Shown in pieces: positions 15,836 through 49,821 of a stretch of DNA of 55,904 nucleotides; the stretch's first letter is position 1; every line of letters begins with the position of its first letter. This DNA is from Eledone cirrhosa. Taxonomy: Eukaryota. The translations under genes were made by a program, and so were the position numbers. The notes below the pieces were generated by a model. The model did no database searches. It was not told the origin of the DNA and was given only the letters and a program-made list of their open reading frames with translations. The stretch is taken from the NCBI GenBank assembly GCA_964016885.1, contig CAXHJY010001654.1, forward strand, positions 1 to 55,904. The letters are read 5' to 3'.

Positions 15836-16204
15836 TGGTGGCTGCCAACTCGTTTTCGAGTACGGCCACTACTTTATATCCATGTAGGAGAACCCCTACC
15901 GATGCGCTGAACGAGTGTGACTTTTTAGTCCAGCTAGCGACTTGAAAACTCGGGTACAAACACTACACTTGTGACAATTATTGACACATAGTGCTTTGCC
16001 TTTGGTACCATGTGACGACAAGTGCAGAGAGATCTCCAGATATAAAGCAATGCCTGTGCCGTGAAGCTTTTATAGTGAGCAAAGGCACTGCACAAAGCCA
16101 GTCCCACTCTCTTAACCAAGATGATATTTACCAAAAAGAAGAACAAGTCAACATCATTGGATACCATCAGGGTTGCAGGTGTTATATCAGAGTTTTCCTT
16201 CTCC
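15836..16204 (-). mobile_element. Bipartite non-autonomous RTE element, family B, 5'-truncated
   Basis: Near-identical to the 3' part of 17123-17727; 3' end ctcgaaaacgagttggcagccacca. Confidence 0.9.
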
Positions 16205-17122: not shown

Positions 17123-17727
17123 TGGTGGCTGCCAACTCGTTTTCGAGTACAGCCACTACTTTATATCCATGTAGGAGAACCCCTACCGATGCGCTGAACG
17201 AATGTGACTTTTCAGTCCGGCCAGCGACTTGAAAACTTTGGTACAAACACTACACTTGTGACAATTATTGACACATAGTGCTGGGCCCATGGTACCATGT
17301 GACGACAAGTGCAGAGAGATCTCCAGATATAAAGCAATGCCTGTGCCGTGAAGTTTTTATAGTGAGCAAAGGCACTGCACAAAGCCAGTCCCACTCTCTT
17401 AACCAAGATGATATTTACCAAAAAGAAGAACAAGTCAACATCATTGGATATCATCAGGGTTGCAGGTGTGATATCAGAGTTTTCCTTCTCCTAGAATTCT
17501 GCCTTGACAAAGGCTAAGGGGTCATCTCTCCCGGTGATTTTGGATGGCCATTGACTCTTAAGAGCTCCTTTGCCCTTTGACAGGTTTTGTTTTTAGTCCT
17601 GCAGGATGTCCAAAGTCACCCTCCTCACCAAGAAACCTTGGTGGGGTTGCCAGTTTAGTCGCCAACGACCCGACCATGGGACAGGTTGTACTGGGATACA
17701 TGTTACCAGTAGCACCAACTGGTGACC
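17123..17727 (-). mobile_element. Bipartite non-autonomous RTE element, family B, full length (about 605 bp)
   Basis: RTE-like 5'UTR related to 23340-23560, joined to the last C2H2-finger codons ([23 protein letters not shown]) and the RTE 3' end. Confidence 0.92.
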
Positions 17728-17789: not shown

Positions 17790-18396
17790 TGGTGGCTGCC
17801 AACTCGTTTTCGAGTACGGCCACTACTTTATATCCATGTAGGAGAACCCCTACCGATGCGCTGAACGAGTGTGACTTTTTAGTCCAGCCGGCGACTTGAA
17901 AACTCTGGTACAAACACTACACTTGTGACAATTACTGACACAGTGCTGGGCCCATGGTACCATGTGACGACAAGTGCAGAGAGATCTCCAGATATAAAGC
18001 AATGCCTGTGCCGTGAAGCTTTTATAGTGAGCAAAGGCACTGCACAAAGCCAGTCCCACTCTCTTAACCAAGATGATATTTACCAAAAAGAAGAACAAGT
18101 CAACATCATTGGATACCATCAGGGTTGCAGGTGTTATATCAGAGTTTTCCTTCTCCTAGAATTCTGCCTTGACAAAGGCTAAGGGGTCATCTCTCCCGGT
18201 GATTTTGGATGGCCATTGACTCTTAAGAGCTCCTTTGCCCTTTGACAGGTTTTGTTTTTAGTCCTGCAGGATGTCCAAAGTCACCCTCCTCACCAAGAAA
18301 CCTTGGTGGGGTTGCCAGTTTAGTCGCCAACGACCCGACCATGGGACAGGTTGTACTGGGATACATGTTACCAGTAGCACCAACTGGTGACCTGAC
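17790..18396 (-). mobile_element. Bipartite non-autonomous RTE element, family B, full length
   Basis: Near-identical to 17123-17727; encodes [23 protein letters not shown]. Confidence 0.92.
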
Positions 18397-19227: not shown

Positions 19228-19433
19228 CATATATATATATACATACATATATATATATATACATATATATATACATACATATATATATATACATATATAT
19301 ATACATACATATATATATACATACATATATATATACATACATATATATATACATACATATATATATACATACATATATATATACATACATATATATATAC
19401 ATACATATATATATATATACATATATATATACA
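18397..19433. repeat. (TA)n/(TACATACA)n array
   Basis: Direct reading. Confidence 0.98.
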
Positions 19434-19507
19434 TGATGGCTGCCCCCTCGTTATCGAGTATGGCCATTGCACAATAAAAAAAAAAAAATAAATAAAATAA
19501 AAAAAAA

Positions 19508-19562
<55 letters not shown>

Positions 19563-19641
19563 GCAATAATAATAATAACGACAACAACAATAATAATATA
19601 CATATTCATATATATATACACACACACGCACGCACATAAGC

Positions 19642-19679
<38 letters not shown>

Positions 19680-22600
19680 GATAGCAACTAACAGTGCTGC
19701 GATCGAATGTGGCTTTTTAGCCCAGCCAATGATCCAAAATGTCTTGCACAGAGTCGGCAACCAAAACATTTACTGGGAATAGTCGGCTGTGGTTGGAGTT
19801 CGTGTACTTTTGCATGTCGCTTGAGTCCTCCTGCTGATTTACATTCTCTACCACATGTTTGGCAAGCATGATGAGTAGCATCTCCAACAGCAGCCTGGTA
19901 GTCAACCACTGGTCTTACTTTATGACTGCGAAGATGACTTTCGAGTCCAGCTTTGCTTAGGCAGAGTCTCGCACAGACGCTGCATGTCAGAAACATAGGA
20001 GGACCCTCGCCGTCTGGAAGTGCAACAGCAATACCCTTCCTCACGTCCCGCTTTACTTTCTCGTGTGCGATTCGAGATGCCTCAAAGGCAACTTTTCCCT
20101 CATATACAGTCTTTCTCCATTTATTACGATCAGCAGCAATATTTTCCCATGTATCAGCAGAGATGTTAGCGTCTTTCAGAGAGGCCTTCAAGGAATCCTT
20201 ATACCTCTTTTTTGGTTTATGTGGCGGTCGTTTTCCTTTAACCAACTCTCCATAGAAGAGTTGTTTTGGTATTCTAGAATCCTTCATCCTGGCAAGGTGA
20301 CCACTCCAACGGAGTCGCTGCTTAAGCACAAGAGCTTCTATACTGTCACACATAGAGCTTTCCAAAATCTCGACATCACTGATGTGGTCCCTCCAGCGAA
20401 CGCCATGTATCCGTCTGAGACACATCTGATGGAAACGCTCCAATTGCTTAAGGTGGCGTCGATATGTGACCCAGGTCTCGCAGGCATAAAGAAGACAAGA
20501 GAGTACACATGCCCTGTACACCTTTACCTTTGTCCTCCTGCATATGTCTCGCCGACCCCAGAGTCGCCTTTCTAGCTTTCCGAAAGCATCACTTGCTTTC
20601 CTAATCCTAAGTGAGATTTCACTGTCAAGGTTGCCGTATCGATTGACAGTGCTTCCCAGGTAGACAAACTGATCAACCACTCCAAGTCGTTTGCCATACA
20701 CATAGATGTTTGGTTCAGTGTACTGCCTACCAGGTGCAGGTTGGTACATGACGACGGTTTTCTTGAGACTGACAGTCAAACCCAGGGCAGTGCAAGCGTC
20801 AGAAAATACATTCAAAATGTGCTGCATATCACTCTCTGTGTGCGCTACAAGATCGCAATCATCTGCATACAAGAGGTCTCTTATGACTGATGTAAATACT
20901 TTTGTCTTCGCAGCAAAGCGCCTGATGTTAAATATGCTGCCTGAGGTTCGATATCGGATGTAAACACCATGCTCGCAATTCCTGAATGCAATACAGAAAA
21001 CCATTGCAAAGTATATGGCAAACAGGGTCGGTGCTGGAATATCCCCCTGTTTCACTCCATTTTTTACTGAGATAGGCTCCGACATGTTACCTCCGACATT
21101 AACCCAAGCCTTCATGTCGTCATGGAAAGACCTAACTAAAGCAAGGAACTTATCAGGGCAACCAAGTTTCTGGAGAACCTTCCATAATGCATCTCTGTTG
21201 ACAGTATCGAAAGCCTTTGTCAGATCGACAAAAACCTGATACAGATCCAAGCCCTGTTCAATGCACTTCTCCTGGAGCTGTCTAGCTGAGAAGATCATAT
21301 CAGTAGTGCCGCGTCCAACACGAAAACCAGATTGACTTTCAGGAAGGACACAATCTGCAATGTGTGTCAGCAGACGGTCCAGAAGCACCCTACATAAAAC
21401 TTTCCCCACGACAGAAAGCAATGATATACCTCTGTAGTTCCCACAATCATTCCTGTTACCCTTTCCCTTGTACAAGACCACCATTACTGCATCTCTCCAG
21501 TCCTCAGGCACGGATTCATTAGCCCATATCCTTCCAAACAGAGAGTGAAGATGTTGCAGGAGTCTCTCACCACCATATTGTAGGAGCTCAGCATGTATGC
21601 CATCCATACCTGGAGATCTTCCACTGTTCAGCTTCGAAATAGCCACTGCAACCTCCACAAGTGTCGGAGGCTCTGCGAGAGCTACTTTCACAGGACTTTC
21701 CGGAATGAGATTGAGGAAATCTTCACTGACGACAGACGGCTGATTCAAAAGATCATCAAAGTGCTCCCGCCACCTTCGTAGAATTCCCTGTGAGTCACGA
21801 AGAAGTTCTTTGCCATCCCTGCTGCGAATCGGTGTCACCAGAGAAGAAGACGGTCCATAAACCTCACGCAAGAGACTGTACAACAGCTTTGTGTTATTGC
21901 AATCAGACGCAGTTTGTATCTCACCAGCCTTCTCACTCCACCACTGATCCTTCATCTGAGAAAGACTCCGCCTAACACGTGATTTTACATCCCTGAGCTC
22001 CTCATGCAACGTATTCCTCTCCTGTGGTCTTGCCGTCAAGTAGCGTGACAGAGCGCGCCTCTTATCAGCCAACAAGTCATCTATATGCACATCTTTCTCA
22101 TCAAACCAGTCCTGATGTTTTCTCTGCACCAATCCCAGAACACGTCTGCCTACATCATAAACCGACTTTTTAAGGGTCGGCCAATCCTCACCAAGATCTG
22201 CAGCCTGCATCTCTTCTTCCAATGTCCTCTTCACATTTTTATCCTTAAGACGAGCAGCATTCAATCTTTTGGGCAGGGTAACACCAGGAGCCCGGATTTT
22301 ACGTTTGGTGATTAGATTCACTTTTGCGCGTACCAGGCGGTGGTCCGTCCAGCACTCAGCTCCACGAAGAACACGAACACACCGCACATCCTGTCTGTCA
22401 CGCATCCTGACTAGGACGTAGTCCAAAAGATGCCATTCCTTAGATGCAGGATGCATCCATGTGGTCTTGAATTTGTTCTTTTGTTGGAACATGGTGTTGG
22501 TAACACACAGATCCAGCTCCTCACACATCTGCAGCAAGAGCATACCATTGCTGTTACACTTTCCCACCCCATGCCTTCCGATTACATTCCATGTGTTAAA

Positions 22601-23278
22601 ATCCCTACCCACTCTAGCATTAAAGTCACCAAGCACGATGACTTTGTCTGCCTGAGGGATATTTCTTAAAACACCTTTCAAGGCATGGTAAAAGGACAGT
22701 TTTTCTTCATCGACAGAATTCATAGTTGGAGCATACACACTCACCAGGGTAGCATATCTTCCCTTGTCCAGCGGAACTCTCATGGACATAAGACGCTCAC
22801 TAATCCCCACTGGGAATTCTTCCAATTTATTCACCAGTACAGTCTTAACAGCAAATCCTACCCCAGCCTCTCTTCTGGTTCCTTCATCTCTTCCTTTCCA
22901 GAAGAATGTATATTCTCCACAAAATTCCGTAAGATGACCATCTCCAGCTAACCTCGTCTCAGACAAAGCCACGATGTCAAGATCGTAACGTCGAAGCTCC
23001 CTCGCAACAAGAGCGGTCCTTCGTTCAGGACGCTCCAAAGAATCCCTGTCAAGCAGCGTCCGTACGTTCCAGCAGCCAAGACTAAATGCCCTGTTTGGCT
23101 CTATTACAATGGCACGATGACGGGCGGGCCCAGGTTGTGATAACTTGGGGCCCCTGCCCTTATTGCCAATGATCTTTTTTGTTCCAGAACCCAAATTGGC
23201 AATTATCTCGTTTACATTGTTCTGGAACATCATTGAATTGGGGAAAAAAAAAAAAAAAAAAAAAAAAAAGTAATAATA

Positions 23279-23313
<35 letters not shown>

Positions 23314-23614
23314 ACACTATTAATAATTATTAATGCACTCGTGCAATGCCTGTGCGTGACGAATATTTTTAAAGTGAGGAAAGACTGTGCACTGAACCAA
23401 TCCCACTCTCTGAGCGACAGTAGCTATAACCCGAAAAGAAGAAAAGATCAACATCATCGGTAACTACTGAGCCGCAGGTTTTATATCGGAGTTAACCCAG
23501 TTTCCTGAGATGCCTTCTCCTAGAAGAATACCCTGACATGGGCTAGGGGTTCTTCACTCCCAGTGGTTTAACTGCGCGATCGGGCATCCAGCCCGATTAT
23601 TTCTATGTCCCCGC

Positions 23615-23616
<2 letters not shown>
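19434..23616 (-). mobile_element. Apparently intact single-ORF RTE/BovB-like LINE
   Basis: 5'UTR, 1181-aa ORF, 3'UTR with (TG)n and (TAT)n tracts, and terminal hairpin CTCG-ATAA-CGAG. Confidence 0.95.
19688..23233 (-). CDS. RTE LINE ORF: APE endonuclease, reverse transcriptase and three C-terminal C2H2 zinc fingers
   Basis: WNVRTL, LSETR, VYAPT, GDFNAR, TDHRLV (APE); [32 protein letters not shown] (RT); CSVC..H..H, CQTC..H..H, CRLC..H...H. Uninterrupted. Confidence 0.97.
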
Positions 23617-23650
<34 letters not shown>

Positions 23651-23653
<3 letters not shown>

Positions 23654-24095
23654 ACTTATTGACACTTATACGTACGACATACACACACACGCATACATAT
23701 GCGTGCACACAGCAACACTCACACACACAACAAACACACACACACGCTACTCTACTCACTTACACGCACACACACACATATATATATATATATTACCGTC
23801 ATTACTGATACAAGATTACCAGATTATGTCAACTGTTGACTTTCAAGAGTTTGTATAGTTGAAGCCGATCGTATTACAGTCCAGTATTACTATAATTGCT
23901 TTACAGCATAGAGTTATGGCTCTCCACGGAGTCAACAAAAGAGAGTACCAGTGATGCGCTGGCCAGTCGCTGGATCCGTGCCAAAAGCAGAAAAATTATT
24001 ATTAAAGTTGTTCTTAAGGCCAGGTCGCTGGTGATGGTGATGGCGACGGCGGTGGCGGTGGTGGTGGTGGTGGCAGTTGATGTTGTTGTTCTGTT
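23651..24095 (-). other. Upstream leader homologous to 37519-38106
   Basis: Shared blocks ACTTATTGACACT, ATGCGCTGG..CAGTCGCTG..TGCCAA and AGTTGTT.TTAAG.CC..TCGCTGGTGATGGTG, in the same order. Confidence 0.75.
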
Positions 24096-24822
24096 GTGTG
24101 TGTGTGTGTGTGTGTGTGTTTTGTTATTTTGAGTTTTTTTTTTTTTTTTTTCCTTTCTTTTTTTTCTCCTTTTTTTTTTTTTTTTTTTGCATGTATATAT
24201 GTGTGTTAGGACAACACACGCTGTCTCTTCGTGGGGTAAGTTTTTAATTAATTTTTGTATTCTGAAACATCAAAATACAACAATTTGTTGGTTACTGGTC
24301 TCGGGAATGTCACGACAGAAGTTTGTGGAAGTTACACAAATATTTTAGTATATTTTAGCAGAGCAATCCTTATTTATATTTTACATTTACTTACATCTCA
24401 ATATAACATGGCTAGAATTCAAATTTTGCTAAGAGAAGAAAACGGTCAAATGAACTAGATACATCTCACTGTCCACACCACCACAATAACGTCTACACTC
24501 TCTCCCCACCATCACATGTCATTACCATACCATACCCTATCGAGACTAAAGTCATCGACCTGTTGTCAAACTCTCTACTCTCTGATGAATGTATATATAT
24601 ATATGTGTGTGTATGTATATGTGTGTATATACATCACTCAGTCAAACAACCAGATTTCAACCCCAACATCTACAACAACAACAACACCGGCCCTAATGTT
24701 TACAGCAACAACAGCTTCAGAATGAACTGAAATGAACATTTACAACAATTACAACAACAACAACAACAGCGGCATCAAAACATAAAAAAAGGAAGGGAAA
24801 AGAAAAAAGAAAAGGGAAGGGG

Positions 24823-24852
<30 letters not shown>

Positions 24853-24857
<5 letters not shown>

Positions 24858-24882
24858 TATACATACATATATATATACATAC

Positions 24883-24937
<55 letters not shown>

Positions 24938-24938
24938 C

Positions 24939-24969
<31 letters not shown>

Positions 24970-25183
24970 CATACATACATATATATACATACATACATAT
25001 ATATACATACATACATATATATACATACATACATATATATACATACATACATATATATACATACATACATATATATATACATACATACATATATATACAT
25101 ACATACATATATATACATACATACATATATATACATACATACATATATATACATACATACATATATATACATACATACATATA

Positions 25184-25215
<32 letters not shown>

Positions 25216-25430
25216 CATATATATACATACATACATATATATATATACATACATATATACATACATACATATATATATATACATACATATATATATATAC
25301 ATACATATATATATATACATACATATATATATATACATACATATATATATATACATACATATACATACATATATACATACATATACATACATACATACAT
25401 ATACATACATACATATATATACATACATAC

Positions 25431-25479
<49 letters not shown>

Positions 25480-25487
25480 CATACATA

Positions 25488-25519
<32 letters not shown>

Positions 25520-25880
25520 CATATATATATATACATATATATATACATACATATATATATATATATACATACATATATATACATATACATACATACATAC
25601 ATATATACATACATATATACATACATACATATATACATACATACATACATACATACATACATACATACATACATAAATATATATATACATACATGCATAT
25701 ATATATATATATATATATACATACATGTACATGAATATACATACATGTACATGAATATACATACACATACATGAATATATGTACATGCATATACATATAT
25801 ATACATACATGCGTACACACAAACATATATATATATACACACATATACATACATGCGTACACACAAACTTATATATATAT
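24853..25880. repeat. (TA)n/(TACA)n array preceded by an A-rich tract
   Basis: Direct reading. Confidence 0.98.
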
Positions 25881-26149
25881 ACTGTAGAACTTGTGTATGA
25901 CCTGTTTATCCTCCCCCCTCTCTCATTTTTATGTAATGATCTTTTGTTCTTTCCTTATGCCTAACATAATTTATCATTTGCTCTCTCTTACTATGTATTC
26001 TCTTTTATATCTTCCTCTCTTTCTCACTATCTCCCCCATCTTCAGATGATGGTGGTGTTTTTGTTTTATTATTATTATCTACTAGGTCTGGTGGAAGGGG
26101 TTTTTGCCACTGACTTTTATATGTCCCTCGAGACTGATGAGATTGAAGC

Positions 26150-26460
26150 TGTTGATGTTCAGCTTAAATTATTGCAAGTCAGACTCTTGCATGAAAGATA
26201 TGTTTCATAGAAGGAATTCCAGAGGGAAGATGTTCTGGGGAGGAATGACTGAGCATAGTGGTTATTGCAGAGCCTGGGGAGTTGGACACTATATGTGTAA
26301 TGAGAGGGGGAATGCCTGAGTGAAGCGAGTATGAGGTCAGCCAGATCTGAAGAGCAGATACCATGGTAGCAGTTGTAGAAATGTGAGCCAGAAGCTAGAG
26401 CATGTCTGTCAGTGACTTTATGCCAATCAGACAAGTGGCAAGTAATCTAAGATGTATGAA
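26150..26460 (-). pseudogene. Degenerate CR1/L2-group LINE C-terminal remnant
   Basis: FYNCYHGICSSDLA...YSVQLPRLCNNHYAQSFLPRTSSLWNSF (SF.PRT..LWNSL-type motif). Confidence 0.7.
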
Positions 26461-26915
26461 TGTGTAGCAGCACCATCTCAGATGTGGAGGCACTACTCCA
26501 TCGTGGATTTTACCTGAACAGTATCAGTGAAAGCTTATAGAGAGCAGACAATAACAAAGTTAAATCGAATGTTAGTCCAGCTTAGACCATCCTTTCAGAT
26601 AAAATTTAGTTTTTTGTGAATGATTGAAGAAATCCAAGCATATGTTCAAGTAGTTCTTTTTTAAAAAACAGTTGTGTAAGTATATTTCACTTTTCGGTTG
26701 GTTAATGTGGGGTGTGAATTTTTTTGGTACCCTCCATTTTATGGAGGAATCTATCCAATCAGGAGGCATAGCATTAAGTTCACAAGCCATATATGGAACC
26801 TCAAGACGACACGGATTTCTATATAAAATGGACAATACTGGAAAAATCCACACTCTACATTAAGAGATCAAACATTTTTTTAATTGTGTACTGCTGAAAA
26901 CTGGAATATACTTAC

Positions 26916-26994
26916 ACAACTGTTTTCTAAACAGAACTGCTTCAACACATGATTGGATTTCTTCAATCATTGCCCACACAAAACTTAATATTTT
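26916..26994 (-). other. Possible 79-nt host exon, unidentified
   Basis: ctctctcttcag acceptor and gtaagt donor; one open frame, KILSFVWAMIEEIQSCVEAVLFRKQL; no recognised homology. Confidence 0.3.
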
Positions 26995-27599
26995 CTGAAG
27001 AGAGAGTTTTAGCCGGACAATACATATTTCCATATATACATATATATATATATAAATACAACTATATATACATATATATACATTTATATACAAATACCCA
27101 GACCTACAGAAATCAACAGCACTCGCAAAGAAAACCTGGAATTTGAAACAAAATAATGCACACTATAAGTTATCATGGTCAATTTTATGATATGCCTGGA
27201 TGTATCAGAGGGAAAGACAGAATTGTGAACTTTGCTCCTTGGAAGTATTGGAGATTATGACTGAAATATCTATTAAACTCAAGACATGACAGGATTTTTA
27301 ATTGCCAATATAGAACTCTGAAAACCTGCTCAAAATACCATGCATACTAACACACTCCCCTATATTCTCTTCGTCCTCAGGTAGAGAACCTTTCTACAAT
27401 ATCGCTGATTAACTCACATACCTTTATACATGTTTTATAACACTAGCGAAGGTAATACACACATCTCACTTTCATAGTCATCCAAGCACAACTGATAGAT
27501 CACTTGTACTACACTACCCTATAGATAATAGACGCAACAATGTATTACATTAAATAGGTATGCTCTGCACAAACTTTAGATCCTACAGTGCATACATCA

Positions 27600-27704
27600 G
27601 CTCTGTATGAGCAAGACATGGTCACTTGACATGGTATTGCTCACAACAGGATAACTCATCTAACCCATGCCAGCGTGGAAAAAAGGATGTTAAACGGGGA
27701 TGAT
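27600..27704 (+). mobile_element. Orphan RTE/SINE 3' tail
   Basis: tgtatgagcaagacatggtca...taacccatgccagcgtggaaaaaaggatgttaaacggggatgat. Confidence 0.7.
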
Positions 27705-28111
27705 ACACCAACATGTCAACAATCTACCTGCCTGTCCACACCATCAACCAGCCAAATTATAGGTATCAACTACAATATCTCCCAATGACCTTTCCTCCTG
27801 CTTTGTTCTTTCCAATAAATTTTGTATATTGCACTGGCTTCACCTCTTCCTAAATTCAGTCTCTCTCCTATTTTAACAGGCCCACACCTCTTGTCAGTGT
27901 CTGACCAGTTACAAAATATACATCTCTACTTGTCACCACTTCTATTTCTTCTAATGACCTACTAACACAATCTATTGGCTACTTGAAGGTTTGCAAGTAT
28001 GCCTGTGTATTTGTATATTTTAAATTTACTTGTAACTTATCTAGTATATTTGACCATAGATATATCAGTGATGTATCTGTGTACATACATAATTTACTGT
28101 ATAAACCTCAC

Positions 28112-28232
28112 CTCATCCACATCACTTCTGTTTCCTGCCGAATTTCTCCGATGATGAGCAGAATTTAAATATGCAGTGCAAGAAAGTTGATTAAGTAATA
28201 ATTTAGCTTTTGTAGAAGATTGCACAGCTGTA
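28112..28232 (-). other. Possible 121-nt host exon, unidentified
   Basis: tgtttcag acceptor, GAG|gtgagg donor, single open frame TAVQSSTKAKLLL...RSDVDE. Confidence 0.25.
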
Positions 28233-28319
28233 CTGAAACACATGTTACAGAAGCTATTATTTAATAAATGTTTCTTCAAACTTCAACAAGTGTTGCCTAG
28301 TTTCTCCTGATATACATTA

Positions 28320-28548
28320 CTCTTTTATATGGTCCAGCTGACAGGCTTGGGCAATGCTGGGGCAACACCACTGACACTACACTTTCTATAGCCAGTCTTC
28401 GTTGGTATACCATTGAAGCAAAAGGGAGTTTGTTGCTGCTGCCCTTATTTGTGCTTCATCCTGTACTGTGGGATCATCCAGGATGTTCCTTTGTGGAATC
28501 TCTCAGATTTTTTGGCTGGTTAATAAAGAGCAAGGGTACTTTGAAACA
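28320..28548 (-). pseudogene. Degenerate CR1-like LINE 3' end
   Basis: ILDDPTVQDEAQIRAAATNSLLLQW plus gccccagcattgccc; paralogous to 50964-51270. Confidence 0.75.
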
Positions 28549-28582
28549 TATACACATATATTATACACACACACACCCACAA

Positions 28583-28735
28583 AAGTATCGTCTTCCTGTC
28601 TTCCTTCGGTTGCAACGTTTTTTGAAGTATTTACTTCTGCGTTCACAGATTGACTTTTCTAGTTACAGAAGATCCCGCTAAGGGTGAAAGTAGCGATTCT
28701 TTGCTTAAACTTTAATCTGTTATTTTAATAAATAT
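28583..28735 (+). mobile_element. Solo copy of a hammerhead-like pLTR segment (family of 31872-32777)
   Basis: Diverged copy of 32541-32693; hammerhead-like motif at 28661-28711, then AATAAA. Confidence 0.8.
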
Positions 28736-29334
28736 ATATACATATGGATATATATATATACATATATATATGTACATATAGATATATATACATATATATA
28801 TATGTACATATAGATATATATACATATAGATATATATGTACATATAGATATATATACATATAGATATATATGTACATATAGATATATATACATATATATA
28901 TATATGTACATATAGATATATATACATATAGATATATGTACATATAGATATATATACATATATATATATATGTACATATAGATATATATACATATAGATA
29001 TATATACATATATATATATATGTACATATAGATATATATACATATAGATATATATACATATATATATATATATGTACATATATATATATGTACATATATA
29101 TATATATGTACATATATATATATATGTACATATAGATATATATACATATATATATACATATATATATATATGTACATATATATATATATGTACATATAGA
29201 TATATATACATATATATACATATAAATATACATATATATAGATATATATACATATAAATATACATATAAATATACATATATATAGATATATATACATATA
29301 AATATACATATATATAGATATATATACATATATA

Positions 29335-29370
<36 letters not shown>

Positions 29371-29401
29371 CATATATATATATACATATATATATATATA
29401 C

Positions 29402-29438
<37 letters not shown>

Positions 29439-29593
29439 CATATAGATATATATATATACATATAGATATATATACATATATATATATATATATACAAATA
29501 GATATATATACATATAGATATATATATAGATATATATACACATATAGATATATATACATATAGATATATATATAGATATATATACACATATAG

Positions 29594-29648
<55 letters not shown>

Positions 29649-29706
29649 CATACATATAGATATATATACATATATATATATATATACATACATATAGATA
29701 TATATA
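28736..29706. repeat. (TA)n array with TAGA and TGTACA variants
   Basis: Direct reading. Confidence 0.98.
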
Positions 29707-31750
29707 CATCATCAACATCATCATCATCAACGTTTAACGTCCGTGTTCCACGCTTGCATGGGTTTGGACGGGGGTAGTCCCACTTGAGGCAAGAGTGATT
29801 GTCTTGCTCGCATAGGACTGTCTGGCAGGTTTTCTACAGTTGGATGCCCTTCCTAACACCAACCACATTTACAGTGTGGGTCTGGGAGGTTTTTACCGTG
29901 TTGCCTACACGGCCACATTACAGCGTGGACTGTGTGTTTTTTTGTCGTGACACCTACACGATCTCATTTGTTTCGGCCTGGATGGCGCGGCACCAACATA
30001 ACTTTACATAGAACGGGGTGGTGTGGATGGGGTGGGGGTGGTGGCGCGACGGGGTGTATTTTGTTAGAGATGCCTACTGGCAAGGCGGGTCTTCTCTGTT
30101 ACTGAGTACCGCCAAAGGTCTCGGTCCAGTGACATTGTCTTGGAGAGGTGTAAGTGTGTGAGGTCGGAGTTTATCAGCTCATCCCATGTTTTTCTAGGTC
30201 TGCCTATTCCGTGGCTACCGTCTATCTTTATTGCCCTGCACTTTGTTATACAGCTATCGACTTTCATGCGCATCACGTGTCCATACCAACGTAGCCTTCT
30301 CTCGAGTAAACAACATCTGATCCCTCTTATCTCTAATTTTTTCCTTAGTTCGTTTATGCTTTGCCGTTCACGTATATTACTGTTACACATCCAGCGGAGC
30401 ATGCAAGCTTCATTCCTCTCTAGTCTGCGTATATCCTCTGCACACAATGCCCAGGTCTCACTACCATGCAACATTGCTGTTCATATGCAGGCATCGTACA
30501 ACCTGCCTTTCATTTTTAGGGAGAACCCTTTAGCGGCTAATAGTGGTATAAGCTCTCTGAACTTTTTCCAACCAGTTCTGACTCTAGCTACAGTACTTTC
30601 AGAGCACCCTCCCCCACTGCTGATTTTATCGCCCAGGTAACGGAAGCTGTCCACTATTTCTATAGAACCCTCTGCGCAATTGAAAGAGCTAGTATTTTGT
30701 GGGCACTTGCTGCTACTTATTGCACCAGAACACCGGCCACATGTAAAGTCTATGTTCTTAGTTAGCTTACCTGTGATCCCACTACATCTTTTATGCACCC
30801 ATACTTTGCATTTAGAACATAAAATGGAGTTTCTACCTACGCCTTTCCTACATACCGAGCACGACCATTTCCCAGAAGGGACCGCCGCCTTGTTTTCTTT
30901 CCTACAAACTAGAACTTTGGTCTTAGCCAGGTTAATTTTAAGTCCTTTTGACTCTAGGCCGTGCTTCCATGTTTGGAATTTCTTCTCTAGCTCGGCCATT
31001 GATTCCGCTATGAGTGTCAGGTCGTCTGCGTATAGGAGTTCCCATGGGCAGCCTGTCTTGAACTCCTCTGTTATAGCCTGAAGGGCAATAATAAATAGTA
31101 GGGGGCTGAGATGGACGCCAACTTTTACGCTAAACTCTTCACTATATTCGTTGTTAATTCTAACCTTGCTGACTGTTTCTTTATACATGGCTTGTATAGC
31201 CCTCACAAGCCATTCGTCAACGCCTAGTTTTCTAAGAGCCCACCAGATAATGGAGCGGGGGACTCTGTCGAAGGCTTTCTCCAGGTCGACAAAAGCTAAG
31301 TAGAGGGGTTTACCTTTAGCTAGGTACTTCTCCTGTAGTTGTCGTACTATGAAAAGAGCGTCTGTGGTGCTTTTGCCTGACACAAACCCGAACTGCATTT
31401 CATCTAGGTCAATTCTCTCTCTGATTAGTTGCGCTATTACTTTTTCCGTGACCTTCATGACCTGGTCGATTAATTTAATGCCTCTATAGTTACTCCTATC
31501 TAGGGCGTCTCCTTTACCCTTATAACAGTTAACGATGATGCTGCTATGCCAGTCCTTCGGAACAACCCCATTCTGTACGACTTGGCTAACTATGCGGGTG
31601 ACCATGGTGTGTCCCACCGTGCCAGATGCCTTCAGCATCTCAGCAACTATTTCCGAAGGCCCAGCCGCCTTACGCGTCTTCATATCCTTGATTGCCTTAC
31701 TTATTATACTCCCCTCGACTAACACTGCTGGTCCCTCTATCGGGTCGATA
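29707..31750 (-). mobile_element. 5'-truncated, inactivated RTE LINE (PHD lineage)
   Basis: Near-identical to 38815-40890; 12-bp deletion of QGSV at ~31110 and CGA>TGA stop at 30481; (GAT)n tail. Confidence 0.96.
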
Positions 31751-31803
31751 TATACATACATAGATATATATACATATATATATATATACATACATATAGA
31801 TAG

Positions 31804-31871
<68 letters not shown>

Positions 31872-31875
<4 letters not shown>

Positions 31876-32776
31876 TTATTAAAATAACAGATTAAAGTTT
31901 AAGCAAAGAATCGCTGCTTCCACCCTTAACGGGATCTTCTGAAACTAACAAAGTCAATCTGTAAACGCAGAACTGGATATTTCAAAAAACGTTGCAACCG
32001 GAGGAAGACACGTCTCCGAACATTCGTGTATTTATTTGTAGGTATGCGTGTGCGCTTGTTATATACGTATTTATTTACTTATATACGTTTATATGATTAT
32101 TTATTTATTTGTACACAAGCATACACACACACACACATTTATATGTGCGTGGTTTTGTATACCTATGGTAAGGTTTTGCGTATGCTTGTGTATGTACGTA
32201 TCTGTTTGCGTGTATGTATTTATTTGTTTCTTAACTCTGTAGCGGAGATTCATTTGGTCTCCTAGTTAGAATTTTAGTCTACGACTTCTGCTATACCATT
32301 TACGTGGTTTTGTCTTTGCGTGCTATTGTTCTCCACGCTCCACATATGACTTATTATCTTCGTTTTTTCGTTCATTGCCAGAGAACGTCTCTATGCACCA
32401 GCTAAGAGAACATTAGTCTACGACCTCTTTTATACCATAAACGTGGTTCTGTCTTTGCGTGTAATTGTTTTTCACCGCTCCTATTAATGACGTATTATTC
32501 GTTTTTTCACGTTCTTTGCCAGCGATCGTTTCCACGAACCAAAGTATCGTCTTCCTGTCTTCCTCCGGTTGCAACGTTTTTTGAAATATCCAGTTCTGCG
32601 TTTACAGATTGACTTTGTTAGTTTCAGAAGATCCCGTTAAGGGTGAAAGCAGCGATTCTTTGCTTAAACTTTAATCTGTTATTTTAATAAATATTTGCTC
32701 TACGGTTCTTATATATTTGATATATATTTTCCTTATCGAGCCCTCTTTGGATTTTAGTCTTCAATTTTATTATTAC

Positions 32777-32777
<1 letters not shown>
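31872..32777 (+). mobile_element. Non-coding Penelope-like remnant: inverted 5' pLTR piece, internal ~141-bp tandem duplication, 3' pLTR with hammerhead-like motif
   Basis: 31872-32010 is the reverse complement of ~32556-32694; tandem units at ~32262-32402 and ~32403-32543; AATAAA at 32686. Confidence 0.7.
32620..32670 (+). ncRNA. Variant type I hammerhead motif (CAGAAGA core)
   Basis: AGTTT-CAGAAGA-TCCC-GTTAA-GGGT-GAAA-GCA..TGC-TT-AAACT; stems I, II and III all pair. Confidence 0.6.
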
Positions 32778-32824
<47 letters not shown>

Positions 32825-33147
32825 TATATATATATACACATATATATATATACATATATATATATATACATATAGATATATATACACATATAGATATATA
32901 TACACATATAGATATATATACACATATAGATATATATACATATATATATATACATACATATAGATATATACACATACATATAGATATATACACATACATA
33001 TAGATATTTATATATATATATATATACATACATATAGATATTTATACATATATATATACATATAGATATATATATATATACATACATATAGATATTTATA
33101 CATATATATATACATATAGATATTTATACATATATATATACATATAG

Positions 33148-33180
<33 letters not shown>

Positions 33181-33245
33181 GATATATATACATATATATA
33201 CATATAGATATATATAGATATATATATATATATATATACATATAG

Positions 33246-33292
<47 letters not shown>

Positions 33293-33337
33293 CATATAGA
33301 TATATATAGATATATATATATATATATATACATATAG

Positions 33338-33435
<98 letters not shown>
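32778..33435. repeat. (TA)n array with TAGA variant
   Basis: Direct reading. Confidence 0.98.
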
Positions 33436-33436
<1 letters not shown>

Positions 33437-33780
33437 GAGGCACATGGCTTAGTGGTTAGAGCATTGGCCTTGCAATCGAAAGGTTGTGAGTTCAATTCTC
33501 AGACCGGGTGATGTGTTGTTTCCTTGAGCAAGACACTTTATTTCACATTGCTCCAGTTTACTCAGCTGTAGAAATGAGATGATAGGGACTGAGGTCCCTA
33601 TCATTCCACTGCAAAGTGGTCGTGGAGGTGCCACGGCAAAAAAGCACCCAGCACTCACTGTAAATGAGGTTGGTGTTAGGAAGGGCATCCAGCTGTAGAA
33701 ATCAAGCCAGAATCAGTTCCCGTCCCACCCTTGTAAGCAAGGAAAAGGGGACGTAAAATGAAATGATGATGAAATGATGA
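33436..33780 (+). mobile_element. Full-length tRNA-derived CORE-type SINE (tail type 2)
   Basis: A and B boxes; CCTTGAGCAAGACACTT...CAGTTTACTCAGCTGTAGAAATGAGATGATA (CORE-like); 11-bp hairpin ATGATAGGGAC-TGAG-GTCCCTATCAT; RTE-type tail. Confidence 0.92.
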
Positions 33781-33791
33781 TATATACATAT

Positions 33792-34112
33792 GGAGGCACA
33801 TGGCTTAGTGGTTAGAGCATTGGCCTTGCAATCGAAAGGTTGTGAGTTCAATTCTCAGACCGGGTGATGTGTTGTTTCCTTGAGCAAGACACTTTATTTC
33901 ACATTGCTCCAGTTTACTCAGCTGTAGAAATGAGATGATATGGAATGGGGTCCCTATCATTCCACTGTAAAGTGGTCGTGGAGGTGCCACGGCAAAAAAA
34001 GCACCCAGCACTCACTGTAAATGAGCTGTAGAAATCAAGCCAAAATCAGTTCCCGTCCCACCCTTGCAAGCAGGGAAAAAGCGGACGTAAAATGAAATGA
34101 TGATGATGATGA
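33792..34112 (+). mobile_element. Tandem second CORE-type SINE with an internal deletion
   Basis: Head identical to 33436; lacks the gttggtgttaggaagggcatcc block. Confidence 0.92.
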
Positions 34113-34155
34113 TATAGATATGTATGCATATATATATATATATACATATATATAC

Positions 34156-34569
34156 ATAAAAGCCGACCTTACCCAATTACACCTCTCAAAGGCAATGACA
34201 CACGACCGTGACCTCTGGCGTCACGCAGTAATACAGAGTACCCGACCTCCCATGGGTACAAGCTGAAGCATATAGACAATATGCCCCCACACCCCCCCAC
34301 CGCAAGGTGGTCGTGGAGGTGCCACGGCAAAAAAGCACCCAGCCCACACTGTAAAGTGGACGTGTAGGCGCCACGAAAAAGCACCCAGCACTCACTGTAA
34401 ATGAGGTTGGTGTTAGGAAGGGCATCCAGCTGTAGAAATCAAGCCAAATCAGTTCCTGTATGAGCAAGGCATGGTCAGCCGACCAGACACTGCCCACAAC
34501 AGGACAACCCGTCTAACCCATGCTAGCGTGGAAGAACGGACGTAAAACGGTGATGATGATGATGATGAT
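34156..34569 (+). mobile_element. 3' end of the RTE subfamily that is the SINE partner
   Basis: KADLTQLHLSKAMTHDRDLWRHAVIQSTRPPMGTS*, followed by a 3'UTR shared with the CORE-SINE tail. Confidence 0.9.
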
Positions 34570-34595
34570 ATAGATACATATAGATATATATACAT

Positions 34596-34919
34596 TCTAA
34601 GGCGGGTAAAATTCCTGAGATCCATGGACGAGTTCTCTCCAGCGGTCTCTGTCCCTCATTAGCGCTGCCATGTCCTGCGTCTCCAACAGACCAGTGTCTG
34701 TCCTTATGGCATCAACATACGTTAACCTTGGTCTTCCTCTTCTAGTGTGTCCATGGATGGGTGCTACACGAGAATGCTGAGGATGGCTCTGAACATTAAT
34801 CAGTATACACTGAGGATGAAAAACTCAGAGCTGTATGGGAGCATCCCAAAAGTCAGCTCAAAAGTGACACAGAGGAGACTGAGGTTAGCTGGATATGCTC
34901 ACCGACATCCAGAGTTGAC

Positions 34920-34920
<1 letters not shown>
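34596..34920 (-). mobile_element. Short LINE 3' fragment with 5' inversion
   Basis: Minus 34746-34598 reads TRRGRPRLTYVDAIRTDTGL...MRDRDRWRELV...*. Plus 34750-34920 reads MDGCYTRMLRMALN...QRRLRLAGYAHRHPELT. Confidence 0.85.
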
Positions 34921-34974
<54 letters not shown>

Positions 34975-35020
34975 TATAGATATATATACATATAGATATA
35001 TATACATATAGATATATACA

Positions 35021-35720
35021 TGTGAACGGCAGTAATAGTAATATACGTGAACGGCAAAGCATAAATAAACTAAGGGAGAAATTAGGAATAAGAGGGATCA
35101 GATGTTTACTCGAGAGAAGACTACGTTGGTATGGTCACGCGATGCGCATGAAAGACGACAGTTGTATAAAAAAGTGCAGGGCGATAAAAATAGACGGTAG
35201 CCACGGAGTAGGCAGACCCAGAAAAACCTGGGACTTGATAAATTCCGACCTCACACACTTACACCTTTCCAAGACAATGTCACTGGACCGAGATCTTTGG
35301 CGCTACACAGTTATATAGAAGACCCGCCTTGCCTAAGCACAAAGCGAAACCTACAGTCAGTCGGCACCTCTAACAAAAATACACCCCCATCCCACTACCC
35401 CCACCCCATCCACACCACCCCTTTCAATGTAAAGTTATGTTGGTACCACAACATCCAGTCCTAAATAAATGAGGTCATGTAGGTGTCACAACAAAAAAAC
35501 ACACAGTCCACGCTGTAATGTGGCCGTGTAGGTAACACGGTAAAAACCACCCAGTCCACACTGTAAACGTGGTTGGTGTTAGGAAGGGCATCCAGCCGTA
35601 GAAAACCCGCCAGACAGTCCTATTCGAGCAAGACAACCAATCTTGCCTCAAGTGGGAAAATTCCCGTCCAAACCCATGCTAGCGTGGAAGATGGACGTTA
35701 AACGATGATGATGATGTTGA

Positions 35721-35724
<4 letters not shown>
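35021..35724 (+). mobile_element. 5'-truncated RTE LINE 3' end (PHD lineage)
   Basis: Near-identical to 11110-11940. Confidence 0.93.
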
Positions 35725-35783
<59 letters not shown>

Positions 35784-35820
35784 CATATATATATACATAT
35801 AGATATATATACATATATAT

Positions 35821-37490
35821 CATCATTTAATGTCTATCTTCCACACTAGCATGGGTTTAGACGGGAATTGTCCCACGTGAGGCAAGATTGGTTGTCTTGC
35901 AGGTTTTCTACGGCTGGATGCCCTTCCTAACACCAACCACGTTTACAGTGTGGACTGGAGGTTTTTACCGTTTTACCTACACGTCCACATTACAGCGTGG
36001 ACTATGTATTTTTTTTGTCGTGACACCTACACAACCTCATTTATTTAGGACTGGATGTTGTGGAACCAACATAACTTTACAGAGAAAGGGGTGGTGTGGA
36101 TGAGGGTGAGGGTAGGGGTAGTGGGATGGGGGTGTATTTTTGGTTAGAGGTGCCTACAGACAGTAGGTTTCGCTTTGTACTTAGGCACAGTAATACTCTG
36201 TATTACTGTGTAGCGCCAAAGATCTCGGTCCAGTGACATTGTCTTGGAGAGGTGTAAGTGTGTAAGGTCGGAATTTAGCAAATCGTCCCAGGTTTTTCTG
36301 GGTCTGCCTACACCGTAGCTTCCATCTCTGTCTGGTTTGAGCTCTGCTCCAGCCACAAGTTTCATCAGTAGCCTGAAGTAAGTTGTCACATAAGAAATTC
36401 CAGTTATTATCTATGTCATACGTCTCTAAATCGTCTTCTTTTTCGTCATACACATCTTGAAGGGCTTTCCTAAATTTGTATTTTAGTGAAAGGTCTTTTA
36501 GCTTCCAGACCTTTCTTCTCCACACCTTCCTGTATGTCTCATTCCATCTCTTGCTTATTGAGATATCACTAACGACTAACCTATGCTGTGGGGTACATTC
36601 TACCCCAGGGTATGCCTTGGTATTAGACACCATCTGCCTGTCCTGCTGCCTAACTAGTACGAAGTCAATCTGGCTTATGTGCTCGCCTGATTTGTAGGTT
36701 ATTAGGTGGTTGGCAGGTCTCTGGAAGTTAGTGTTGCAAATGGTCAGTGTACTTGCATCACAAAATTCAAGAAGTCTCACTCCTTCTTCATTTGTTGAGC
36801 CGTAACCATGCCCACCATGTACCCCAGTGTAACCATCCTGGAGCTGTCCAACATGACCATTGAAGTCCCCTGCTAGCATAACGATGTTTCTGTCATTGCG
36901 GTTGTTTGTAAAAGTTGCTCGTAAAAGCAGTCTTTCTCTTCTTTGCCTAGGCCTGCTTGGGGAGCATAGGCAGAGATGATTGTCAGTAGTCTCTGCCTAC
37001 AACTAATCTAATCTTAATTATTCGATCACTAACTCGAACTACCTCTATTGTCTTATTGATCCATCTCTCAGTCAGGAAAATACCTACCCCCCCTAACCCA
37101 TTATCCTTACCTACCCAGAAAAGCTTATAGCCAAGATGTTTGCCTACGACTAGTCTCGCAGAGGCACCTCTCCATCTCACCTCTTGCACGCAGCACACAT
37201 CCACATGCCTTCTCTCCAGCATCTCCGCTATTTCAGCAGATCTACCTCAGAGTGCCAACATTAAGTGTTGCAACTTTGAGATGCGACGTCTTCATATTTT
37301 GTTGTTCCTATCTACTTGGTGCTGTGCTGATAAGCGTTTTGGCATTGATACACTGGTTGGATACCCTTCCTAACACCAGTGCCACTTTACAGCATGGACT
37401 GGGTGCTTTTATTTGTGCCACCAGCACTAGAAAGGATGTCTTACTAGACTCAAGGGCCCTCTCTACCCCTCCATTTTACAGCATGGTCAT
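35821..37490 (-). mobile_element. Internally deleted RTE LINE: 5'UTR and APE joined directly to the 3' end
   Basis: VQEVRWRG, GGVGIF, AGDFNGHVG, QHRLVV, then WSRAQTRQR joined at ~36326 to DGSYGVGRPRKTW; RT is missing. Confidence 0.9.
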
Positions 37491-37518
37491 GAAACCCCCC
37501 CCCCCCCAAAAAAAACCC

Positions 37519-38104
37519 ACTTATTGACACTCACGACACACACACAGACACACTCACTCACACACCAACACTCATGCATACAAACTACAAACACACACAC
37601 CAAAATCAAGGCACCAGCAATGCGCTGGGACAGTCGCTGCCCCATGCCAAGAACAGAATAGTTATTTAGTATTCAGTAATGTAGAAACCATTATTAGAAA
37701 CCATTATTATAGTTGTTTTTAAGACCTGATCGCTGGTGATGGTGGTGGTGGTGGTGGTAGTGATGGCGGTGAAGGTGGTGGATGGTATCAGTGATGGTGA
37801 TGGTGGTAGTGGTGGCGGTAAAGGTGGTGGATGGTGTCAGTGATGGTGATGGTGGTGGTGGATGGTGCCAATGATGGTGGTAGTGATGGTGGTAGTGAAG
37901 GTGGTGGATGTTGTCAGTGATAGTGAAGGTGGTGGATGTTGTCAGTGATGGTGATGGTAGTGGATGGTGTCAGCGATGGTGATGGTGGTGGTGGTGGATG
38001 GTCCCAGTGATGGTGGTAGTGGTGGTAGTGGTGGCGGATCGTGTCAGTGATGGAAGTTATTGTTGCTGATGCTGCCATTGTTGTTGTTCATTTCAACAAC
38101 AACG

Positions 38105-38106
<2 letters not shown>
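37519..38106 (-). other. Upstream leader homologous to 23651-24095, with an expanded GGT/GAT minisatellite
   Basis: Shared blocks as listed for 23651-24095; repeated ggtggtggatggtgtcagtgat units at 37735-38052. Confidence 0.75.
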
Positions 38107-38154
<48 letters not shown>

Positions 38155-38814: not shown

Positions 38815-41594
38815 CATCATCATCATCATCATCAGCGTTTAACGTCCGTGTTCCACGCTTGCATGGGTTTGGACGGGGGTAGTCCCACTTGAGGCAAGAG
38901 TGATTGTCTTGCTCGCATAGGACTGTCTGGCAGGTTTTCTACAGTTGGATGCCCTTCCTAACACCAACCACATTTACAGTGTGGGTCTGGGAGGTTTTTA
39001 CCGTGTTGCCTACACGGCCACATTACAGCGTGGACTGTGTGTTTTTTTGTCGTGACACCTACACGATCTCATTTGTTTCGGCCTCGATGGCGCGGCACCA
39101 ACATAACTTTACATAGAACGGGGTGGTGTGGATCGGGTGGGGGTGGTGGGACGGGGTGTATTTGTTAGAGATGCCTACTGGCTGGAGTAGGTTTTACTAT
39201 ATATTTAGGTAAGGCGGGTCTTCTCTGTTACTGAGTACCGCCAAAGGTCTCGGTCCAGTGACATTGTCTTGGAGAGGTGTAAGTGTGTGATGTCGGAGTT
39301 TATCAGCTCGTCCCAGGTTTTTCTAGGTCTGCCTATTCCGTGACTACCGTCTATCTTTATTGCCCTGCACTTTGTTATACAGCTATCGACTTTCATGCGC
39401 ATCACGTGTCCATACCAACGTAGCCTTCTCTCGAGTAAACAACATCTGATCCCTCTTATCTCTAATTTATTCCTTAGTTCGTTTATGCTTTGCCGTTCAC
39501 GTATATTACTGTTACACATCCAGCGGAGCATGCAAGCTTCGTTCCTCTCTAGTCTGCGTATATCCTCTGCACACAATGCCCAGGTCTCACTGCCATGCAG
39601 CATTGCTGTTCGTATGCAGGCATCGTACAACCTGCCTTTCATTTTTAGTGAGAACCCTTTAGCAGCTAATAGTGGTATAAGCTCTCTGAACTTTTTCCAA
39701 CCAGTTCTGACTCTAGCTACAGTACTTTCAGAGCACCCTCCCCCACTGCTGATTTTATCGCCCAGGTAACGGAAGCTGTCCACTATTTCTATAGAACCCT
39801 CTGCGCAATTGAAAGAGCTAGTAGTTTGTGGGCACTTGCTGCTACTTATTGCACCAGAGCACCGGCCACATGTAAAATCTATGTTCTTAGTTAGCCTACC
39901 TGTGATCCCACTACATCTTTTATGCACCCATACTTTGCATTTAGGACATAAAATGGAGTTTCTACCTACGCCTTTCCTACACACCGAGCACGACCATTTC
40001 CCAGAAGGGACCGCCGCCTTGTTTTCTTTCCTACAAACTAGTACTTTGGTCTTAGCCAGGTTAATTTTAAGTCCTTTTGACTCTAGGCCGAGCTTCCATG
40101 TTTGGAATTTCTTCTCTAGCTCGGCCATTGATTCCGCTATGAGTGTCAGGTCGTCTGCGTATAGGAGTTCCCATGGGCAGCCTGTCTTGAACTCCTCTGT
40201 TATGGCCTGAAGGGCAATAATAAATAGTAGTGGACTGAGAACAGAGCCCTGATGGACGCCGACTTTTACGCTAAACTCTTCACTATATTCGTTGTTAATT
40301 CTAACCTTGCTGACTGTTTCTTTATACATGGCTTGTATAGCCCTCACAAGCCATTCGTCAACGCCTAGTTTTCTAAGAGCCCACCAGATAATGGAGCGGG
40401 GGACTCTGTCGAAGGCTTTCTCCAAGTCGACAAAAGCTAAGTAGAGGGGTTTACCTTTAGCTAGGTACTTCTCTTGTAGTTGTCGTACTATGAAAAGAGC
40501 GTCTGTGGTACTTTTGCCTGACACAAACCCGAACTGCATTTCATCTAGGTCAATTCTCTCTCTGATTAGTTGCGCTATTACTCTTTCCGTGACCTTCATG
40601 ACCTGGTCGATTAATTTAATGCCTCTATAGTTACTCCTATCTAGGGCGTCTCCTTTACCCTTATAACAGTTAACGATGATGCTGCTATGCCAGTCCTTCG
40701 GAACAACCCCGTTTTGTACGACTTGGTTAACTATGCGGGTGACCATGGTGTGTCCCACCGTGCCAGATGCCTTCAGCATCTCAGCAACTATTTCCGAAGG
40801 CCCAGCCGCCTTACCAGTCTTCATATCCTTGATTGCCTTACTTATTATACTCCCCTCGACTAACACTGCTGGTCCCTCTATTGGGTCGATATGGGGGAGA
40901 CTGCCTTTCTCCCAATTATTCTCCTCATTTAGAAGCCTTTCATAGTGACACTTCCAAGCTACCTTCTTATCAGCGTCGGTGATGGCAAGTGTGCCATCGT
41001 CGTTTAGTACACACTTCTCCCCGACAATATCACGGTTTTCCTTGACGCATTGCCTAGCAATCCTGAACACCTCACGTTTTTGGTCATCGCGTTGTAGAAC
41101 ATGCTTGAACTTTCTTTCCTCAGCTTCCCTTCTTGCTAAGTACACTTGTCTCCTAGCTTCCCTCCTGGCCACTTGATAGTCCTCTCTACTTCCCCCATCC
41201 CGCCATACTTTCCAAGCCTGCTTTTTGGCCTTAATTGACCCCTCCACCTTACTGTTCCACCACCATGTTACTCTCCTCCTGCCTACAGGCCTGCTCCAGC
41301 CACAGACCTCGTCTGTCGCCAACAGCAGGTTTGCTTTCAGAAATTCCCACTCTCCCTCTATATTGTCCGACTCTAAATGTTCTTCCTTACTGTCGAAAGC
41401 ATCAAGTAATATGCTTTGAAATTTATTCCTGGCTGTGGGGTCCTTTAACTTCCATATTTTCCTCCTGAGGATAGTCCTCTTCTGTTGTCGAGTACGTCTC
41501 GTCCTGACTATGAGGTCGCTAATTATCAGTCTATGTTGGGAGGTGCATTCTTCATGGGGGAGGGATTTAGTGTTAACAACAGACACTCTGTCAC
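38815..41594 (-). mobile_element. Young 5'-truncated RTE LINE (PHD lineage) with a candidate 19-bp TSD
   Basis: (GAT)n tail, 3'UTR, open frame 39205-41594; CATACATATATATATACAT at both 38796-38814 and 41595-41613. Confidence 0.96.
39205..41594 (-). CDS. Truncated RTE ORF (end of APE, RT, PHD-type finger); no genuine start codon
   Basis: [62 protein letters not shown]; no internal stops. Confidence 0.9.

Positions 41595-49821
<8,227 letters not shown>

Follow-up and report, generated by a model that had tools for sequence, protein, structure and literature searches.

In a 55,904-nucleotide stretch of the Eledone cirrhosa genome (contig CAXHJY010001654.1, the whole of which is referred to as the window), the same ordered cassette stands sense-upstream of two long interspersed nuclear elements (LINEs) of the RTE type. 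One of them, element A, is an intact LINE encoding C-terminal zinc fingers (ZF-RTE), and the other, element B, is an older, broken copy related to a lineage carrying a PHD-like finger (the PHD lineage). Our preferred reading, which we hold with moderate confidence, is that the cassette is a recruited 5' leader travelling with a young ZF-RTE subfamily, and that an older paralogue of this leader was joined to the other RTE by template switching. A sequence-only reading of the window had proposed either a leader captured by, or swapped between, retrotransposons or an element with one fixed insertion site for LINEs. The former fits best, as cassette A is multi-copy, the units are bounded by TA-rich sequence and no duplication flanks the LINE alone, whereas the latter is disfavoured, as no common right-half target follows the two 3' ends.

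Both cassettes lie on the minus strand where they had been placed before, with their parts in the same order. When the blocks of A and B were compared by local alignment, block 1 (24043-23998 versus 37748-37703) matched in 40 of 46 columns (87%) and block 2 (24000-23947 versus 37666-37612) in 43 of 56 (77%), and a 13-mer, AGTGTCAATAAGT, is exact in both (23666-23654 and 37531-37519). None of 2000 dinucleotide shuffles (mean 15.4, standard deviation 2.6, maximum 31) reached the score of the A/B core, 65.6. Judging from these alignments, the homology of the cassettes is real and exceeds chance adjacency; A and B are the only copies in the window. The TG-rich spacer (66/95 between A and B, low-complexity) contributes little to the homology, because A's TG block fits the 3' untranslated region (3'UTR) of ZF-RTE itself better than it fits B (scores of 61 and 53, respectively, among 126 TG-rich windows). 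The copies also differ: about 150-190 nucleotides of A are absent in B, B carries a 39-nucleotide insert and an expanded CAC tract, and the junction T run is T35 in A and GGG-T8-G13 in B. The string CCG.TGTTGTTG occurs three times in the window, at the tip of B and twice near the outer end of A (24772 and 24690), where CCG-(TTG)n in the outer leader matches B's tip. This suggests that the outer ends of A and B are homologous with internal loss in B, the tip motif being of low complexity. The CpG ratio is 0.9 in the core of A, 0.42 in that of B and 0.35 in the decayed coding part of B.

The LINE starts that adjoin the two cassettes differ from those of the related copies at 2411 and 7872, as had been noted from the letters. 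A's LINE start is covered by contigs of sequencing runs X1, X2 and X5, and a loose end in X6 matches the 2411 start; both ZF-type starts recur in other runs and are therefore subfamily variants. The same reading had called the two LINE lineages unrelated. They are distinct, but with 27% identity over 579 amino acids the ZF and PHD lineages are distantly related. The identity of B's endonuclease remnant is highest to the 7872 copy (54%), followed by the PHD RTE at 41594 (46%) and ZF-RTE (about 30%). To judge from its sequence, element B is itself internally chimeric or deleted, switching at 36327 to a PHD-family 3' end. Element A has the layout of a single open reading frame (ORF) with an APE endonuclease and a reverse transcriptase (RT) and no ORF1, and no further long ORF lies upstream. 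We take it to belong to the RTE clade from this layout. The closest relative of its protein (P0002) is 63% identical.

For the insertion boundaries, 8 of 42 alignment rows were kept (at least 95% identity), the 34 dropped being older, partial or the ZF self row; three of the eight insert ends follow repeat-mask edges and are hence biased. Six of these eight young RTE-type inserts had a TA score of at least 0.5 (background 2.2%), and the other two have a microsatellite 2-12 nucleotides upstream. The TA score was 0 at the LINE starts of both A and B, and 0.79 and 1.0 at the cassette tips (24853 and 38107, respectively). Flank duplication amounted to at most 2 nucleotides when the LINE was taken alone, and to 12 (A) and 8 (B) nucleotides, within low-complexity arrays, when the leader was included, with 4-9 in the controls. 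The array above 24853 and the array below A's 3' end had a 6-mer cosine of 0.99, the joint best of 13. No shared sequence follows the 3' ends of A and B, and both ends enter TA arrays. TA-bounded units, no duplication for the LINE alone and no shared right flank together argue against a fixed target and suggest a unit A of about 5.4 kb, extending from 24853 to 19433. An inner (TA)8 at 23778-23793 offers an alternative start for A, with a duplication of only 4 nucleotides.

At least half of the sequence words of cassette A were found in 4 of 24 listed runs, all from organism A and one study. Contigs of 4 of the 24 runs were aligned to 23312-24090 (runs sharing less than 0.2 were not used); the kind of runs X1-X4 is not on record, no RNA run is listed, and contigs carry neither strand nor start. 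In X2, summed depth over 23806-24013 was 13,700-36,400, compared with 5-13 for listed single contigs, although summed contig depths are not copy numbers. One variant of the A core was present in 30 X2 contigs. With the depth sums, this means that the core is multi-copy with few variants. Two X1 contigs had no differences from cassette A (depths 101 and 162). The rescaled depth of the LINE 5' tip was of the same order as that of the cassette, 22,800 in X2 and 501 in X1, where the cassette had 111-415. In X5, which comes from organism B, the core was a single contig of depth 7.7, with a LINE tip of about 1,340 after rescaling. This gives a weak hint that amplification of the cassette was recent and specific to organism A; filtered contigs could lower the X5 value. 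Cover is lacking at 23799-23923 in X5 and at the LINE tip in X6, but nothing can be concluded from such gaps. The X5 contig, like 12% of X2 depth, carries a G insertion at 23960, which is B's state. As only 12% of X2 depth has it, most X2 copies share A's state, which is likely the derived one because the X5 contig and that 12% match B. Exact-pattern scans for the cassette gave no match in metagenome, viral or prokaryote genome contigs, and none of six candidates from a protein scan of viral contigs was confirmed.

The following course of events would account for these observations. An old genomic stretch with an antisense remnant of a short interspersed nuclear element (SINE) would have come to lie at the 5' end of a LINE transcript, likely supplying its start site. 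A leader-bearing ZF-RTE master would then have spread recently, with copies of up to about 5.4 kb inserting into TATG/TA arrays. At the same T run, an older paralogue of the leader would have become fused to an RTE from the other lineage, likely by an RT template switch, and this join would be either a one-time event (B alone) or the founder of a family. What we infer is that cassette and LINE are transcribed together, that the cassette functions as a promoter, that a burst took place recently and that a template switch at the U run gave rise to B. A bolder version, which we regard as rather doubtful, is that an old antisense SINE forms the basis of a portable leader, about 1.2 kb long, which moves at a fixed U run between RTE lineages that are about 27% alike, and that capture of this leader triggered a species-specific ZF-RTE burst.

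Several observations weigh against a recruited leader. Read on the plus strand, segment A has a purine tract and A31 at its end and carries the SINE remnant in sense, as in a polyadenylated RNA. Positions 23604-23798 were skipped as repeat and no listed contig spans the leader-LINE junction, so the link between the two is made by two loci and summed depths. An X6 contig is identical to the window over 23867-24012 with different sequence on the LINE side, and window letters are in the minority in X2 at 23890 (8%; 90% in X1) and at 23539 in the 5'UTR (2%). The cassette is therefore found in more than one context. The 12-nucleotide duplication of A is weak, as 28% of random array cuts reach 12, and the two arrays of B show no special match (0.90, sixth of 13). 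Finally, B may be a one-off because it is chimeric at 36327.

The plus-strand appearance of segment A leads to a different explanation, one we think unlikely: the cassette would be a polyadenylated RNA or non-autonomous retroposon, itself multi-copy, running from the 13-mer (5') to 24853 or 38107 (3') and standing head-to-head with the LINE through twin priming or inserted at an A run. This would explain why 23617-24853 is flanked by A35 and A31, with a purine-rich tail and (CAA)n near the right end, why the SINE remnant is in sense, and why the exact 13-mer occupies the place expected of a conserved 5' terminus. A precedent exists in antisense mRNA/L1 chimeras attributed to twin priming (bioRxiv 10.1101/2025.02.02.635956). 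However, an A tail is missing from B, that of A does not resemble the RTE 3' ends of the window, and there is no AATAAA near the right end, the sole signal being ATTAAA at 24001. Moreover, both copies (2/2) meet a LINE 5' end, requiring a special mechanism, and the similar depths of cassette and LINE tip would be coincidental.

RTE elements have been reported to insert about 10 nucleotides downstream of a T stretch (PMC6007223; PMC13295347), and A and B are just 14 kb apart. The cassette might then be a resident repeat or a duplicated host promoter or first exon with a T run that RTE elements prefer as a target, the LINEs having inserted independently. Donor-like GT sites after the motif in A and B, and the single X5 contig of depth 7.7, would also suit such an origin. 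We judge it quite improbable nonetheless, since neither T run has a target duplication, the 3' ends enter TA arrays without shared sequence, none of the 62 nearby short frames searched, out of 109 listed, matched Pfam, and B's CpGs have decayed as in dead transposable element sequence. It is very improbable, in our view, that the leader is confined to the ZF-RTE lineage and that B is a DNA-level accident in which deletion or conversion fused an old leader-bearing copy to a PHD-lineage RTE nearby. In favour of this, B has a chimeric junction at 36327 in any case, and RTE pieces are densely nested in the window; but the join lies at the same T run as A's border and the second LINE 5'UTR is nearly complete, an outcome that random deletion seldom produces.

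As to the composition of the cassette, positions 23880-24012 (plus strand) align to a tRNA-type SINE of the window at 6290-6050, with none of 1000 shuffles reaching the score and an nhmmer E value of 0.04; block 2 is consequently in part an old antisense SINE tail. With a wider query (23794-24030), 1 of 1000 shuffles reached the score, and with cassette B, 5 of 1000. Eight X2 contigs depart from the window at 23928 and continue with B-box-like sequence resembling the SINE at 6290-6050, and X1 and X5 contig ends fall at 23924-23928. A's B box would have been deleted at the CCACG repeat there (23924-23928). The core remnant may belong to the MetaSINEs, in which a tRNA head is followed by a 66-bp Meta domain.

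Several other identities for the cassette were considered and rejected. Its folding is unremarkable (z-scores of 0.14, -1.52, -0.43 and -1.32), and with Rfam matches at chance level only, a structured RNA was set aside. U6 ends in a U run, as does the junction side of the cassette; for a U6-type small RNA/LINE chimera, no Rfam match near the gathering score and no tRNA was found in the cassette. Internal T4-T5 runs argue against an RNA polymerase III transcript. A ribozyme-headed RTE (hepatitis delta virus-like or twister) was not favoured, as there was no Rfam ribozyme and a simple descriptor of the delta type gave no hits in five regions, although divergent folds could escape it. A coding cassette was rejected because frames are not preserved between A and B, and a 122-amino-acid frame matches Pfam only under cut-offs. 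The 13-mer and the core are absent from both LINE 3' ends, contrary to a head-to-tail tandem promoter in the 3'UTR, and no inverted 13-mer (one mismatch allowed) lies near either cassette, contrary to a transposon with terminal inverted repeats or of the Helentron type. No host gene, small nuclear RNA (snRNA) or Rfam family matches the cassette. Canonical donor-like GTAAGT sites occur in leader A at 24236 (plus) and at 24394 and 23763 (minus), with no host exon found nearby.

The features of the two elements are collected in Table 1.

Table 1. Coordinates of elements A and B, their cassettes and adjoining LINE parts within the window.
Feature	Position	Strand	Remarks
ZF-RTE ORF, single and intact	19688..23236	-	1182 amino acids; APE endonuclease (PF03372), RT (PF00078), C-terminal C2H2 fingers
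ZF-RTE 3'UTR	19433..19687	-	TG, TAT and T tracts; end common to derivative 2742-2781; enters TATG/TA array
ZF-RTE 5'UTR	23237..23616	-	23576-23339 also in non-autonomous derivatives
ZF-RTE hairpin-forming 5' tip	23616-23577	-	Contigs of X1, X2 and X5 also cover the tip
T35 run, junction of cassette A and LINE	23617..23651	-	
Exact shared 13-mer, inner end of cassette A	23654..23666	-	
TG-rich spacer of cassette A, including (TA)8	23667..23793	-	Low complexity
Non-repetitive core of cassette A	23799..24021	-	Many low-divergence X2 contigs; 0-difference contigs in X1 and X6
Decayed tRNA-SINE-like remnant in cassette A	23880..24012	+	Antisense to LINE; without B-box part
Blocks 2 and 1 of cassette A	23947..24043	-	Three CAGCG copies retained in A and B alike
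CAC tract and putative outer leader A	24044..24853	-	Begins with T31 and pyrimidine tract at TATG/TA array
Cassette B	37508..38107	-	CCG-(TTG)n tip against (TA)n, expanded CAC tandem units, blocks 1 and 2 (37748-37612), TG spacer, 13-mer (37531-37519), GGG-T8
G13 run, then 5'UTR and broken endonuclease region of older RTE	36328..37507	-	Related to 7872 copy and PHD lineage
PHD-RTE family 3' end fused to B's 5' part	35821..36327	-	Enters (TA)n

Of the window bases, 22,310 of 55,904 were masked as tandem repeat, and the remainder consists mostly of RTE-type LINE and SINE pieces. The 63% relative of the ZF-RTE protein lies on a contig of 5,501 bases, longer than most matches and close to the 5.4 kb proposed for unit A. 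A relative of ZF-RTE has given rise to a young non-autonomous derivative of 604 bp, present at 17124-17727, 17791-18394, 49823-50426 and 15837-16204, all on the minus strand. It consists of the 5'UTR, the last zinc-finger codons and the 3' end, and has its own, longer 5' end; the copies are 97-98% identical, each within a TATG/TA array. Another derivative at 2401-2781 (plus) is bipartite, with the ZF-RTE 5'UTR fused to the ZF-RTE 3' end, and the great depth at which X1, X2 and X5 cover it points to a large family. Bipartite derivatives of LINEs (PMC5786205) and microsatellite tails (PMC2887409) have both been described. A 5-bp hairpin in the ZF-family 5'UTR (23530-23545, minus) shows one two-sided and one one-sided change among four copies, too few to judge. 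Allele shares on 23312-24090 differ strongly between X1 and X2 (61% versus 4% at 23432, 41% versus less than 1% at 23506, and 10% versus 92% at 23890), so X1 is not a random sample of X2's copies; X1 might be RNA or a reduced library.

In the PHD lineage, 5'-truncated RTE copies at 38835-41594 and 29731-31751 (minus) are 96% identical and have the PHD-like finger right after the RT domain, the former with a 795-amino-acid open frame. The 5'UTR of this lineage (37355-37410; 7963-8061) contains about 57 bp that are about 80% homologous to the 3'UTR of its own family and to SINE tails, a terminal-repeat-like layout. At 35627-35897, two RTE 3' ends stand tail-to-tail around a TA array and form a long inverted repeat, a source of false microRNA matches. 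An 8-kb TATG/TA microsatellite array at 41595-49822 separates two retroelement ends.

By analogy, the arrangement resembles 5'UTR recruitment in mammalian L1 and the WEIRD-MGL chimeras of a fungus. In mouse L1, 11 5'UTR replacements have been reported, some reviving old ones (PMC3600994), and such replacement was reported to be rare outside mammals (PMC5381506). As in the mouse A, F, V, Mus and Lx types (PMC3600994; PMC5381506), a non-homologous 5' module stands on a LINE lineage, an old module can be found on a younger element, and the leader may contain tandem units, as in B. The L1 exchanges were, however, among closely related families of one clade, whereas here single-ORF RTE types about 27-30% identical are involved and the promoter role is putative. 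In the MINE chimeras of Magnaporthe grisea (WEIRD-MGL and WEIRD-Mg-SINE; PMC2104539), one non-coding 5' piece of about 1.1 kb is fused to two different retroelements, was never observed solo and is ascribed to template switching. The MGL parts there are 5'-truncated with variable junctions and WEIRD is a demonstrated transcript, whereas both LINEs here retain their 5'UTR behind a single T-run join and transcription of the cassette is presumed. L1 5' transduction or promoter co-option (RAP1GDS1-L1PA2) and U6/L1 chimeras (bioRxiv 10.1101/2025.02.02.635956) likewise combine, in one insertion, a near full-length LINE with foreign sense sequence on its 5' side, but the cassette matches no host gene, snRNA or Rfam family. 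Among cephalopods, RTE-2_OV of Octopus vulgaris (PMC9115989) has, like ZF-RTE, a single ORF with endonuclease, RT and a C2H2 finger, and a microsatellite 3'UTR. It is another family: the 4 of 12 cloning primers tested each differed from their best window site at 3-5 positions, the 5'UTR of RTE-2_OV measures about 600 nucleotides, and the accessible part of that paper describes no shared leader. A literature search found no leader shared between cephalopod RTE lineages; Repbase, Dfam and curated octopus libraries lay outside the search, and a consensus may exist there.

How LINEs gain promoters is an open question that has been studied almost solely in mammalian L1. If the link between leader and LINE is true, the window would offer a datable leader capture in an invertebrate RTE element. 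Two deep lineages would then carry one leader, present at low copy number in one species but amplified in a relative, and capture could be tested as the cause of the burst. If B is a one-off chimera, the finding would be an ordinary record of template switching and would refine the 5' boundary of a young, intact LINE family.

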